From: Escherichia coli
Lineage (GTDB): Bacteria; Pseudomonadota; Gammaproteobacteria; Enterobacterales; Enterobacteriaceae
Length of the DNA stretch: 64,000 nt
Assembly: GCF_013122565.1 (NCBI RefSeq)
Contig: NZ_CP053258.1
Reading direction: 5' to 3' (one strand)
Made by a program: the position numbers and the translations under genes
Shown here: piece by piece, positions 7,184 to 13,847 of the stretch
Layout: each line of letters opens with the position of its first letter
Numbering within the stretch: position 1 is the stretch's first letter
The notes under the pieces: model-generated
Told to the model about the DNA's origin: nothing
The model's input: only the letters and a program-made list of their open reading frames with translations
The model's database searches: none

Positions 7184-8818
7184 ATGATCACTGGTGACTT
7201 AAAAAGTAAAATCGACGGACTATGGGAAGATTTCTGGGTGGGTGGTATCACCAACCCGCTGACTGTAATCGAACAGATCACCTATCTAATGTATTCCCGG
7301 ATGCTGGATACCCAGGAACAACGTGACGAGAAGCGTAAACAAATCGCGGGTATTGATTTTAAACCGCGTTTTACGCCAGAACAGCAGGAGTTCCGTTTCA
7401 GTCACTATAGCAATCTTGGCTCGGATGAGATGATGGAAGTGGTGCGCGATGGCGTATTCCAGCATTTTCGTCAGCTCGGCCTGGCTGATGCATCAAAGGT
7501 GACACTGCTGGGCAACTTTATGAAAGATGCTCGTCTAGAGATTGTTAAGCCGTCATTGCTGACCAAAGCGGTTGAGGTGATCAAAAACCTGCCGCTCGAT
7601 CGCGGCGATACCAAAGGCGATCTCTACGAGTACCTGTTGAGCAAGCTAACTACCGCCGGGATCAACGGTCAGTTCCGCACGCCACGCCACATTATCCGCA
7701 CGATGGTTGAAATGATGGAGCCGAATCCCGCCCGCGGCGAGACGATTTGCGATCCAGCCTGTGGCACCGGTGGTTTTCTGGCAACCAGCTATGAATATCT
7801 GCTGGAGAAGTACAGCTCGCTGGAATCCATCCATACTGAGATTGGCACCAACGAACGTGGCGAGCTGGAAGAGCAAAAAATCTTTACCGGCGATCTGCTG
7901 ACGCCATGGCGTAACCATGTGGATAACAATATGTTCCACGGTTACGACTTTGATACCACCATGCTGCGTATCGCCGCCATGAACCTGATTATGCACGGCG
8001 TGGAAGCGCCTGATATCCACTATCAGGACACCATGAGCCAGAGCTTCAGCACAAACTTCCCGCAGGCCAGTAAAAACGCTTTCAACCTGATTCTGGCAAA
8101 CCCGCCGTTTACCGGTTCACTGGACGAGGAAGATATCGACTCCACGCTGTCGGCAATGGTGAAAACAAAAAAAACCGAACTGCTGTTCCTGGCGCGAATT
8201 CTGCAAATGCTGAAAGTGGGCGGGCGAAGTGCCACTATCGTGCCGCAGGGCGTGCTGTTTGGCTCCAGTAAGGCGCACCAGTCACTTCGCAAAACGTTGG
8301 TGGAAGATAACCAATTGGAAGCGGTGATCAACCTGCCTTCCGGCGTATTTAAACCTTACGCTGGCGTGGCGACGGCGATCCTGATCTTTACCAAAGGCGG
8401 TCAAACGGATGAGGTCTGGTTCTACGATCTACAAAATGACGGCTACAGCCTGGATGATAAGCGCAACCCGATAAAAGACAACGATCTGCCGCATCTGCTG
8501 GCAAGCTGGAAGCATTACCGTACTTTACGCGGGCTACCGGTTGATAACTTTATGGGTGAGAAGTTAGCCTCATTGCTGAAACAGCAGTACCCGGAAGGGA
8601 TTGATGCTGGCGTTGATTTTAAAGATCGCACGCAGGCGGCATTTGTGGTGCCGAAAGAAGATATTGCTGCGCAGAAATACGATCTCTCTATCAATCGTTA
8701 TAAAGAGGTGGTGTATCAGGCGGAGGAATATGAAGATCCGAAGGTGATACTGAAACGATTAAAAGATCTGGAAAAAGAGATTCTGGCGGATCTGGATGAG
8801 CTGGAGGGGATGCTGTGA
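7184..8818 (+). CDS. hsdM: Type I R-M N6-adenine DNA methyltransferase HsdM (544 aa)
   Basis: Motif I-like PACGTGGFL and catalytic NPPF (LANPPFTGS) in translation; stop overlaps hsdS start (ATGA-type overlap at 8815-8818). Confidence 0.9.
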
Positions 8819-9990
8819 GCAGGAAAGAATATTCCTTTATTGAAGTATGTGATATCCAAGGAGGAACTCAGCCTCCAAAGGACGAGTTTGTTTATGAAAA
8901 AAAAGATGGATATATAAGGCTTTTACAAATCCAAGATTTTAAAAGAGAGGATAAAACTGTTTATATTAAGGATAGGCATACTCTGAAAAAATGTAATGAC
9001 GATGATATTCTAATAGGTAGATATGGAGCATCTATTGGAAAAATTCTCTCTGGGTTATCAGGAGCATATAACGTTGCTTTGGTTAAAGCCATCCCTGATT
9101 TAAAAAAAATAAACAAGAGATTTTTATGGCATTTTTTAAACAGTGTAGTATTTCAAGAATTTATAAAAAATGTTTCTACTCGAGCCGCTCAAGCTGGGTT
9201 TAATAAGGATGACTTAGCAAAGCTAAAAATATATTTACCATCTTTAAATGAGCAAGTGAAAATTGCTTCTGTTCTTGATTTATCTGATGCCATACGCAAA
9301 AAACGAGAACAAACTATCAAACTGGCTGATGATTTTTTGCGTGCTACGTTTTTGGAGATGTTTGGTGATCCTGTTGAAAACCCTAAAGGATGGAAAAAGG
9401 ATAAAATAAAAAAAGGTGTGTTAGGCATTGCTTCAGGATGGAGTGCCACTGGAGAAAATATACCCTGTAAATCTGATGAATTTGGCGTGTTGAAAATCAG
9501 CTCGGTGACTTCTGGAGTATTCAAACCAGAAGAAAATAAAGTGGTAGCCTGTGAATCCATTCCCGCTTCAAAAAAACTTATTCACCCTAAAAAGGGAGAT
9601 TTGCTATTTAGTCGCGCAAATACCAGAGAGTTAGTTGCTGCGATATGCATGGTTCATCAGGATTATGACAACCTTTTCCTTCCTGATAAACTATGGTCTA
9701 TTAAGTTAAATCATAAGCTATTGCTACCAGAGTTCTTTCTCATCTTAATACAAAATGAAAAAGTCCGTGAGTTACTAACAAAACAAGCGACCGGAACAAG
9801 TGGGTCGATGCTAAATATATCTAAAAATAAATTTGAAGAAACTGAAATTATCTTCCCAGAGATCAATGTTCAAAAAGATTTTTGCAATACTTTCAGAAAA
9901 ACAATAAATTTGAAAACAAAGTTAATAAAAAGTAATGAATTAGCTAATGAGTCATTTAATTCATTATCTCAAAAGGTATTTCAGCAATGA
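8815..9990 (+). CDS. hsdS: Type I R-M specificity subunit HsdS (391 aa)
   Basis: Position immediately after hsdM with start/stop overlap; AT-rich, Lys/Asn-rich translation typical of S subunits; target-recognition domains not individually verified. Confidence 0.8.
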   Translation: MSRKEYSFIEVCDIQGGTQPPKDEFVYEKKDGYIRLLQIQDFKREDKTVYIKDRHTLKKCNDDDILIGRYGASIGKILSGLSGAYNVALVKAIPDLKKINKRFLWHFLNSVVFQEFIKNVSTRAAQAGFNKDDLAKLKIYLPSLNEQVKIASVLDLSDAIRKKREQTIKLADDFLRATFLEMFGDPVENPKGWKKDKIKKGVLGIASGWSATGENIPCKSDEFGVLKISSVTSGVFKPEENKVVACESIPASKKLIHPKKGDLLFSRANTRELVAAICMVHQDYDNLFLPDKLWSIKLNHKLLLPEFFLILIQNEKVRELLTKQATGTSGSMLNISKNKFEETEIIFPEINVQKDFCNTFRKTINLKTKLIKSNELANESFNSLSQKVFQQ

Positions 9991-12594: not shown

Positions 12595-12842
12595 GAGTTA
12601 AATATATTACATCAATCAAAAATTGATAACGATTTCATAATGATAAAATTAAAACAAAGGCATTTACTGTTATTTTAATTATATATATAAGACAGATACA
12701 ATGCCTTTTAATTTCTATAAGACTGTTTTTCTCATAAAAATCACTTTATATAGATTAAAAACACCATCCAATAAAGCATCATTCTACTTTCATAGATACT
12801 ATAATAACAAAATTAACATTATTTCATGTTTTTTAAGCAAGC

Positions 12843-13847
12843 TTAATAATAATTATAGTATAACCGTTTAATTGCCTTGTTTAATATAGTTTCATACTCA
12901 TTTTCTGACATATTCAACCAAGCAGTTATACTTTTTAATCCACTAGACTGATAATCTATAAACTCGCGCATTTTATTATAATCAATACTTACCTGCGTGT
13001 TTGTATCAGCTATAACTTTAGGTTCCCCATTACACCACCCTAAAATAAGAAAACTACTCATTGTGCTTGACATGTCACAAAAGAAAAAAAGATCGGGTAT
13101 TATTTTACCTAATTGCTTTGCATAACTGACTACCTCAGGTATTTCAAGCAACTCTCTGGGGTCATCATCATACCCCCCAAATAATATTTCAACCTTACCC
13201 TGTTGACTATAAGCAAATTCCTTTGTCACTTTTAGTCTTTTAAAAATGCTAATGACAAAACCAAAATCAAATCTTAAAACATCTTCTTTAGGAATAATTA
13301 GGCGAGTGATATCTATATTCTCATTAAATATTTTGTTTACACACCAAAACATTTCAAACTCAGAGTAATAATCAACTTCTTCAGGAAGAAGTGCCAATAT
13401 CTCATCTCTACTATCAATCAATTGACGTTTTGGAATATTAATCTTCCATGATTTTTTTGTTCTTTCAATTTTGATAGGATCAAAATATTCCCAAAACACT
13501 TCTTTTTTTTCAGGATTGCAAAGCAAAATCAAAACAGGTATTGGGCAGTTGGATAAATAATTAAAGTGCTTATTTTCACCTCTGTAAACATATCCCCACC
13601 GATTTTCTTCCGAAAAAAATGAAGCTCCACATTTGATTTGTACAGCAAGCATTTTCCCCGTTACGGCTCCATCTTCTCGTACTATTTCGATATAACCATC
13701 GATACCGAAATCCATTTCTTGATGGTTTATCTTAAAAATCCATCCAAGATTTTCATTAATTACTGATTTTACTATATTTACTCCAAGCTCACCTAATTGA
13801 GCTTCTTTTTGGTATTTTGGGAATTTATCTATCATAAAAAACCTCAA
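12843..13847 (-). CDS. hypothetical protein with DUF4365-like / PD-(D/E)xK nuclease-like N-terminal domain (334 aa)
   Basis: N-terminal segment DFGIDGYIEIV...LAVQIKCG fits a D...E.K nuclease core as I recall DUF4365; C-terminal half unassigned; strongly AT-rich; convergent with the ATPase-HNH operon. Confidence 0.5.
   Translation of the reverse strand: MRFFMIDKFPKYQKEAQLGELGVNIVKSVINENLGWIFKINHQEMDFGIDGYIEIVREDGAVTGKMLAVQIKCGASFFSEENRWGYVYRGENKHFNYLSNCPIPVLILLCNPEKKEVFWEYFDPIKIERTKKSWKINIPKRQLIDSRDEILALLPEEVDYYSEFEMFWCVNKIFNENIDITRLIIPKEDVLRFDFGFVISIFKRLKVTKEFAYSQQGKVEILFGGYDDDPRELLEIPEVVSYAKQLGKIIPDLFFFCDMSSTMSSFLILGWCNGEPKVIADTNTQVSIDYNKMREFIDYQSSGLKSITAWLNMSENEYETILNKAIKRLYYNYY

Follow-up and report, generated by a model that had tools for sequence, protein, structure and literature searches.

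The EcoKI hsdRMS-mcrBC locus of Escherichia coli K-12, the type IA 'immigration control region', is among the closest described counterparts of the element considered here. In this known site of allelic replacement, an hsdR-hsdM pair of normal composition is followed by an AT-rich hsdS, in which variable target recognition domains (TRDs) lie between conserved regions (CRs), and by further AT-rich defence genes. A literature search on the G+C of hsdS in E. coli returned nothing usable, and the values of the K-12 locus were computed directly: 0.539 for hsdR, 0.548 for hsdM, 0.404 for hsdS (0.32 at third codon positions, GC3) and 0.37-0.40 for mcrBC. As a rule, mobile elements are richer in A+T than the genomes that host them, and acquired DNA of this kind is the preferred target of H-NS silencing in enterobacteria. 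As early as 1992, Sharp, Murray and colleagues reportedly described hsd loci as recombining and as atypical in composition. The stretch analysed here, hereafter the window, comprises 64,000 nucleotides of E. coli contig NZ_CP053258.1 (assembly GCF_013122565.1), and its left 15.7 kb is taken up by a genomic island whose attachment site is leuX, the gene for tRNA-Leu(CAA). In this island, the type I restriction-modification (R-M) genes hsdR and hsdM precede an AT-rich block, positions 8819-14150, which holds hsdS, a Septu-like ATPase-HNH gene pair and a DUF4365-DUF1817 gene, and which ends at a P4-type tyrosine integrase gene. This block is probably the variable cargo compartment of a modular leuX defence island, drawn from an AT-rich mobile pool and reshuffled by homologous recombination.

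The locus shares features with several groups of described systems. Compared with EcoKI, it appears to belong to another type I family (its HsdM matches EcoKI M only at E 3e-28), it possesses an integrase and a tRNA anchor that the K-12 locus lacks, and its compositional contrast is stronger (0.51 versus 0.32). The contrast at EcoKI indicates that enterobacterial type I loci usually combine an AT-rich hsdS with a GC-normal hsdRM. AT-rich cargo behind hsdM is an ordinary pattern for such loci. A second parallel is found in cassettes embedded in hsd operons, such as PrrC in EcoprrI, DarTG2, which lies between hsdS and hsdR in the RRDM island of enteropathogenic E. coli at a site called a potential recombination hotspot (PMC12255303), and TgvAB, a defence cassette in the type I R-M locus of VPI-2 in V. 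cholerae (PMC11411939); a systematic 'guilt-by-embedding' survey has been published as well (Payne et al. 2024, bioRxiv 10.1101/2024.01.29.577857). In these cases, as here, a second defence module resides in the hsd operon and the hsdS-side site takes varied cargos, but theirs is inserted between hsdS and hsdR, whereas the window adds an example with the order R-M-S-cargo, in which the cargo follows hsdS and is bounded by the island integrase. Finally, leuX corresponds to E. coli defence hotspot #37 in the summary of Hochhauser et al. 2023 that is given in PMC12707154, and the hotspot is occupied in 97% of isolates, with several type I families and replacement among them (PMC12707154). The leuX anchor, the arm-type integrase at one end, the combination of type I R-M with other defence genes and the replacement from strain to strain are all common to that hotspot and to the window, which differs from it in nothing essential and represents a further occupant.

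The compositional mosaic was initially recognised by eye, with hsdS, the ATPase, HNH and DUF4365 genes and their intergenic regions described as strongly AT-rich, and hsdR, hsdM and the integrase as E. coli-like. Per-gene G+C (Table 1), GC3 and codon usage bear out the first part of that description in full, and the difference between the segments is large rather than insignificant. GC3 amounts to 0.58-0.60 in hsdR and hsdM versus about 0.23-0.27 in the four cargo genes, more than four standard deviations (sd) below the backbone mean of 0.583 (sd 0.077). Codon usage, measured as Karlin's B against the 31 backbone genes to the right of leuX, places the four cargo genes at 0.61-0.69, with a backbone mean of 0.31 (sd 0.10). 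Regarding the second part, hsdR (B 0.146) and hsdM (0.235) are indeed E. coli-like, but the integrase is only intermediate (GC3 0.478, B 0.41). The cargo proteins had also been described as rich in Asn, Lys and Ile. This holds for HsdS, the ATPase and the DUF4365 protein, where these residues make up a fraction of 0.25-0.27, compared with 0.14-0.17 in HsdR, HsdM, the integrase and Ahr, while the HNH protein displays a mild enrichment (0.185).

A three-segment maximum-likelihood fit over window positions 5000-17000 locates the edges of the block. The G+C passes from 0.511 to 0.322 and back to 0.513, with a log-likelihood gain of 220 over a uniform model. The left change point falls at 8823 (2-lnL range 8809-8892), coincident with the hsdM stop codon (8818), and the right one at 14140 (2-lnL range 14069-14164), coincident with that of the integrase (14150/14151). 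The block had originally been delimited as 8815-13847; its left edge was exact, but the right one fell about 300 bp short, as the AT-rich stretch extends to the integrase stop and should be closed at about 14150. Chance or artefact as the source of the drop in G+C is ruled out by the likelihood gain and by the distance of the cargo GC3 from the backbone. The only other strongly AT-rich gene of the window lies at 29839-31611 (- strand), amid core genes to the right of leuX; it encodes 590 residues, has a G+C of 0.324, a GC3 of 0.316 and a codon distance of 0.58, and found no match in PADLOC.

The evidence that the block is a compartment whose contents are exchanged comes from the comparison with other loci (numbered L001 onwards) and with 5426 complete E. 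coli genomes, 424 of which carry this hsdM and 64 the ATPase-HNH pair. At least five cargos are found on one scaffold that is itself 95-97% identical, with hsdR 96-98% identical among E. coli loci of differing cargo. The window and L001 share the PDC-M01 pair (the Septu-like ATPase and HNH genes) with the DUF4365 gene; L002 and L071 contain a different hsdS with an AriA/PDC-M55A-like ATPase and a hypothetical gene (274 genomes, nearly all at ≥99%); L070, also at leuX, has yet another hsdS with a 1093-residue DEAD-box helicase and a hypothetical gene (16 genomes); L005, at selC, combines the PDC-M01 pair with the 5'-nucleotidase PDC-S08; and L072 has a decayed set made up of a hypothetical gene, a 5'-nucleotidase and a pseudogene of a phosphorothioate-sensing restriction endonuclease (REase). 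In every comparison with an alternative cargo, DNA homology with the window ends at 8819 and restarts at CR1 (9236-9396, 77-82%) and/or at 14142-14147, the integrase stop. Since homology breaks at the same points as composition, the compositional boundaries are recombination boundaries. The exchange of hsdS together with its downstream module, which the initial annotation had suggested as a possibility, is therefore seen with base resolution on a constant hsdRM, and the comparison with other E. coli islands proposed there identifies the segment from 8819 to the integrase stop as the variable part.

The joints of this exchange can be located on both sides. On the left, the clean block common to the window and L001 begins after 8563, and the last ~255 bp of hsdM, with a G+C of 0.46, appears to act as a recombination arm. 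Within hsdS, TRD1 has been replaced in L003 and L005-L008, with homology back at 9236, and L002 and L071 have hsdM genes that are 95.4% identical and unrelated TRD1 sequences but are 99.4% identical from CR1 to the integrase remnant. On the right, the 3' end of the integrase gene constitutes the homology arm, a remnant of about 190 bp persisting beside the cargo where the integrase has been lost; such remnants are annotated in L002, L003 and L071, where window positions 14147-14336 are matched at 91%. No direct or inverted terminal repeats above chance flank the block, which rules out a cassette bounded by a transposon or insertion sequence and leaves homologous recombination in the conserved arms as the simplest mechanism. 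As a separate observation, the span homologous to the cargo block includes, in about 25 genomes among the matches listed, an IS1-flanked segment of ~3.3 kb with the carbapenemase gene blaOXA-244; these genomes (H42-H58 and H71-H76; e.g., NZ_CP050382.1, 572953-581985) seemingly belong for a large part to one lineage.

The block of the window is a chimera in its turn. The ATPase gene shares 98.7% identity with the allele of Lelliottia nimipressuralis and 75.7% with those of E. coli ST131 and F404, whereas the HNH gene, the spacer and the DUF4365 gene are 99.6% and 97.8-98.3% identical to ST131/F404 and 83% to Lelliottia. Mismatch maps place the junction of the Lelliottia-type ATPase with the ST131-type HNH and DUF4365 genes 70-95 bp ahead of the ATPase stop codon: around position 11560, L003 shows 421 differences to the left and 9 to the right, and L007 shows 15 and 172, respectively. 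The block accordingly consists of at least four independently exchanged units, namely TRD1; CR1-TRD2-CR2 with the ATPase gene; the HNH gene with the 3' part of the DUF4365 gene; and the rest up to the integrase.

Where the low G+C comes from is a distinct question. The closest relatives of the ATPase belong to mid-GC Enterobacterales, with amino-acid identities of 99-97% in Klebsiella, Enterobacter and Serratia, 84% in Yersinia, 73-74% in Pectobacterium and Arsenophonus and 70% in Salmonella, followed at 50-58% by Vibrio, Shewanella, Moritella, Marinomonas, Aeromonas, Proteus and Providencia. A close low-GC donor was not found in a search of 5.8 billion proteins and of 100,044 species genomes, in which every relative at ≥70% amino-acid identity falls within Enterobacterales; the proteins of the nearest low-GC hosts, Vibrio and Proteus, are 51-57% identical. 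Plasmids and phages were rejected as vehicles of the cargo, as no plasmid offered an ATPase match above 39% identity and no phage offered any. With each species represented by one genome, a scan yielded about 30 full-length loci in which the HNH gene directly follows, and only in Chimaeribacter, Lelliottia and Rouxiella is the pair preceded by this hsdRMS. These three genera show an equal mosaic (hsdRM 0.49-0.52, hsdS 0.35-0.38, pair 0.32-0.37), which indicates that the mosaic is older than this strain and excludes a recent single import. Across the loci, the G+C of the pair tracks that of the host (r = 0.73), reaching 0.60 in Sphingobium and Burkholderiales, yet in 27 of 29 loci the pair has a lower G+C than its flanks, equalling them only in Vibrio owensii and Proteus myxofaciens. 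This pattern is compatible with the gamma-proteobacterial clade having arisen in low-GC hosts, without pinpointing a donor. In Aeromonas dhakensis (L034, 6877-9460), the pair forms a stronger compositional island than in E. coli, with a G+C of 0.34 between flanks of 0.61.

The initial annotation had proposed that the cargo was acquired from a low-GC donor and grafted onto an existing hsdRM scaffold. A single transfer of this kind, replacing hsdS and everything downstream of it on a resident E. coli hsdRM, would account for the sharp step exactly at the hsdM stop codon, for the alternative hsdS-plus-cargo sets that fill the same slot, for the way in which CR1 and all that follows up to the end of the cargo travel as one almost unchanged piece on scaffolds that have diverged, and for the fact that only in low-GC Vibrio and Proteus does the pair share the composition of its surroundings. 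Nevertheless, it is improbable: the exchange units of the chimeric block have different nearest relatives, TRD1 is replaced alone, and a single low-GC donor is spoken against by close ATPase relatives that are all from mid-GC Enterobacterales, with none closer than 39% found on plasmids and none in phages, and by the recurrence of the mosaic in three other genera and at EcoKI. Nor is there a resident chromosomal scaffold onto which a graft could have been made, as hsdR, hsdM and the integrase are island genes and hsdRM moves between leuX and selC islands. It is likewise unlikely that the low G+C is maintained in place, whether by selection for H-NS binding and silencing of toxic effectors, by AT-biased mutation under weak selection or by an AT bias of fast-evolving defence genes. 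Such a bias would agree with the predilection of H-NS noted above, with the near-general AT-richness of the pair relative to its flanks across Proteobacteria, with the retention of a low GC3 by diverged alleles and with the AT-rich hsdS and mcrBC beside the GC-normal hsdRM of EcoKI. However, the abrupt step follows recombination breakpoints and not functional categories, the slot also houses cargo genes of normal G+C, only one other gene of the window comes anywhere near a GC3 as low as 0.23, and the G+C of distant homologues follows the host, which means that the family does ameliorate.

The preferred reading, a reshuffled compartment supplied from an AT-rich pool, has to face several points that weigh against it. 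No donor combines close identity with matching composition, so that the low-GC origin is inferred from distant relatives at 51-57% amino-acid identity. ATPase alleles that are 24% apart in nucleotides both hold a GC3 of ~0.22 in mid-GC hosts, and this constancy could mean that the bias is actively maintained rather than inherited. Some cargo of the slot is not AT-rich, the 5'-nucleotidase having a G+C of 0.46-0.48 and the phosphorothioate-sensing REase one of 0.52. In addition, the hand comparison covers about 12 loci, and the co-occurrence of scaffold and cargo in the genome counts was not verified for each genome.

The model that interconnects these observations distinguishes a constant part, the hsdR-hsdM scaffold of Enterobacterales-like composition together with the P4-type integrase, from a cargo formed by hsdS, the Septu-like pair, predicted to be co-transcribed and translationally coupled with it, and a separate DREN-type nuclease gene. 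The cargo would stem from a pool of AT-rich defence genes shared among Enterobacterales and rooted in low-GC Gammaproteobacteria, and would be exchanged by homologous recombination, presumably of the RecA type, at a small number of conserved joints. Two of these involve the hsd genes (the 3' end of hsdM and CR1 in hsdS), a third is situated in the 3' end of the ATPase gene, and the last is the DUF4365/integrase 3' end. Recombination at these joints explains both that the G+C step falls on gene boundaries and that the block is chimeric. The cargo genes would be active in defence, and their low G+C may persist through fast turnover in the mobile pool and possibly through H-NS silencing. The locus would thereby offer a view at base-pair level of how a defence island is assembled, with the R-M scaffold and the integrase serving as homology arms and the AT-rich compartment between them being exchanged, down to specificity domains, whole effector systems and the sensor-like and effector-like halves of one two-gene system. 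For genome scans it carries a caution, in that a sharp G+C step is good evidence of a separate history but does not point to a single donor or a single event. The locus overturns neither the current view of defence islands nor that of type I R-M evolution.

Table 1. Features of the leuX island and their positions in the window, with G+C per gene or region.
Feature	Position	Strand	G+C	Supporting match or remark
GTPase-family protein	1393-2406	-		weak PADLOC matches: dynamin-like LeoBC E 9e-12, LeoA E 1e-7
WYL-domain protein	2446-3216	-		PADLOC WYL E 2e-17
hsdR, restriction subunit	3704-7120	+	0.512	constant scaffold; PADLOC REase_I E 3e-274
hsdM, methyltransferase subunit	7184-8818	+	0.506	constant scaffold; PADLOC MTase_I E 2.5e-192
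hsdS, specificity subunit	8815-9990	+	0.333	PADLOC Specificity_I E 6e-140, end to end
hsdS, TRD1	8819-9235
hsdS, CR1 (central conserved)	9236-9396
hsdS, TRD2	9397-9870
hsdS, CR2	9871-9990
PtuA-like ABC ATPase, 563 residues	9987-11678	+	0.321	PADLOC PDC-M01A E 5e-239; PtuA models down to E 7e-48
Crossover, Lelliottia-type ATPase to ST131-type HNH/DUF4365	11582-11608			mismatch maps
PtuB-like HNH nuclease, 308 residues	11668-12594	+	0.360	PADLOC PDC-M01B E 1e-107
Convergent intergenic region	12595-12842		0.214	lowest G+C of the block; no Rfam match
DUF4365 (DREN-type PD-(D/E)xK nuclease)-DUF1817 protein	12843-13835	-	0.314	Pfam DUF4365 E 1e-35
AT-rich spacer up to the integrase stop	13836-14150		about 0.297	boundary of composition and homology at 14140-14147
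P4-type tyrosine integrase	14151-15419	-	0.490	NCBIfam PRK09692 E 1e-80
leuX, tRNA-Leu(CAA), island attachment site	15619-15703	-		ARAGORN; Rfam tRNA

The ATPase-HNH pair is assigned to PDC-M01, an unpublished PADLOC candidate whose calls coincide with those of Septu by DefenseFinder (PMC11811056). In the alignment of ATPase homologues (A1), the Walker A motif GPNGIGKS (G207-S214), the signature SSGQ (S406-Q409), the Walker B motif IDEPE (D432-E435) and the H-loop H466 are invariant; the homologues carry PF13175 and PF13304, and the adjacent gene encodes an HNH nuclease with the PtuB fold. The NCBIfam equivalog for PtuA, NF041760, which is specific to the effector of retron Ec78, scores 45.6 bits with the ATPase against a cut-off of 500, and for this reason the pair is named Septu-like or PDC-M01 and not canonical PtuA. 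The pair differs in several ways from Septu and the PtuAB of retrons Ec78, Eco7 and Ec83. Only in the C-terminal ABC motifs does the sequence of the ATPase resemble solved PtuA, and there marginally, at about the same E value (~1e-4) as for its other sequence relatives in the PDB, ABC transporters and the OLD nuclease of retron Eco8. Other differences are an extra N-terminal region of about 200 residues in the ATPase and the location of the pair in a type I R-M operon, without the reverse transcriptase and msr/msd of the retrons. By analogy with Septu and the retron Ec78/Eco7 PtuAB, the ATPase and HNH proteins would form a complex that works as a nuclease effector.

The arrangement of the pair is maintained across taxa, the ATPase gene being followed directly by the HNH gene in practically every full-length locus (L006-L038). 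Outside Enterobacterales, the proteobacterial loci place it beside other defence genes, such as IetS, an Nhi/AbiO-like gene, a type II REase and an LmuB-like gene, and the pair is an autonomous module. It has also to be considered that the pair might be functionally coupled to HsdM2S, being restrained by it or sensing it as PrrC does with EcoprrI, and that this would be the reason for its joint travel with the distal part of hsdS. The basis for this is genetic linkage and translational coupling only, and the occurrence of the pair without hsd genes in most taxa weakens the comparison with PrrC and argues against obligate coupling, which makes the idea very doubtful. Were it true, a swap of the cassette would change restriction specificity and a backup effector together, and the crossover shortly before the end of ptuA would correspond to a modular interface at which alleles of the ATPase (sensor) and of the HNH protein (effector) reassort.

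The type I system comprises its three subunits, the helicase-nuclease HsdR, the N6-adenine methyltransferase HsdM and HsdS, all matched over their full length by the PADLOC models, and the PDB relatives of HsdM and HsdR are type I M and R subunits. HsdS has the layout with two TRDs, the DNA homology between alleles being confined to CR1 and TRD1 being wholly replaced; it would direct both methylation and restriction. Models of R subunits score below their cut-offs, with 231 bits versus 550 for the nearest, NCBIfam EcoAI/FtnUII, and 332 versus 729 for PRK11448. In a comparison that included the M proteins of EcoKI and EcoR124, with IB, ID and IE references outside it, both were distant matches to HsdM, and the family appears to be neither IA nor IC. 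The hsdS GTG start lies on the hsdM stop (GTGA), the ATPase ATG on the hsdS stop (ATGA), and 11 bp are common to the ATPase and HNH genes; these overlapping stop and start codons point to a translationally coupled operon from hsdM onward.

The DUF4365-DUF1817 gene belongs to a widespread stand-alone family of about 330 residues. In the window it is a stand-alone gene as well, convergent with the hsd operon and with an alternative TTG start at 13847; it is absent in L005-L008 and represented by two open reading frames (ORFs) in ST131. An AlphaFold2 model of the protein (pLDDT 90) finds its top Foldseek matches in DREN-APAZ chains of SPARDA (E 4e-10) over the N-terminal ~150 residues, and the C-terminal half is DUF1817/Crr6-like. 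The DREN (DUF4365) domain would act as a nuclease. While this fold is shared with SPARDA, a short prokaryotic Argonaute (pAgo) accompanied by DREN-APAZ, both the APAZ domain and a neighbouring Argonaute gene are absent here and the C-terminal half is DUF1817. Membership in SPARDA or the short pAgos was rejected accordingly, the neighbours of the gene being the HNH gene and the integrase.

Non-coding RNAs and small genes were sought in the AT-rich spacers; apart from the tRNA, Rfam yielded only a sub-threshold match to gyrA RNA that is probably due to chance, and conserved small ORFs were not found. Promoter and terminator scans returned counts no higher than in shuffled sequence, AT-rich DNA giving many promoter-like sites. 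A perfect 12-bp inverted repeat with a loop of 4 nt (ACCAACTAGCCC-TCTT-GGGCTAGTTGGT) and without a T-tract is located at 14079-14108, about 45 bp past the integrase stop and inside the AT-rich side of the boundary. This hairpin is found in L072 and is missing from the stretches where homology restarts at 14142-14147.

As expected for a tRNA-anchored island, the tyrosine integrase adjoins leuX and the strain-variable content lies beside the conserved ahr gene. The host was confirmed as E. coli by the 99.0% identity of the core tre region, which led to the rejection of any other species. At loci other than leuX, an integrase 3' remnant of about 185 bp directly follows the cargo (L002, 17272-17456; L003, 14565-14747; L071, 13488-13672), and these loci adjoin tia/leoABC or an omp gene. 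The presence of the remnant suggests that the hsd-cargo module travelled there with a piece of the integrase gene. On the left side of the island, the WYL gene is divergent from hsdR, with a spacer of 487 bp (3217-3703, G+C 0.41) between them, and it is kept upstream of the scaffold in L001 and L070; its product is a candidate regulator of the hsd operon of the BrxR/CapW type. The GTPase gene also precedes the scaffold in L001, L070 and L005.

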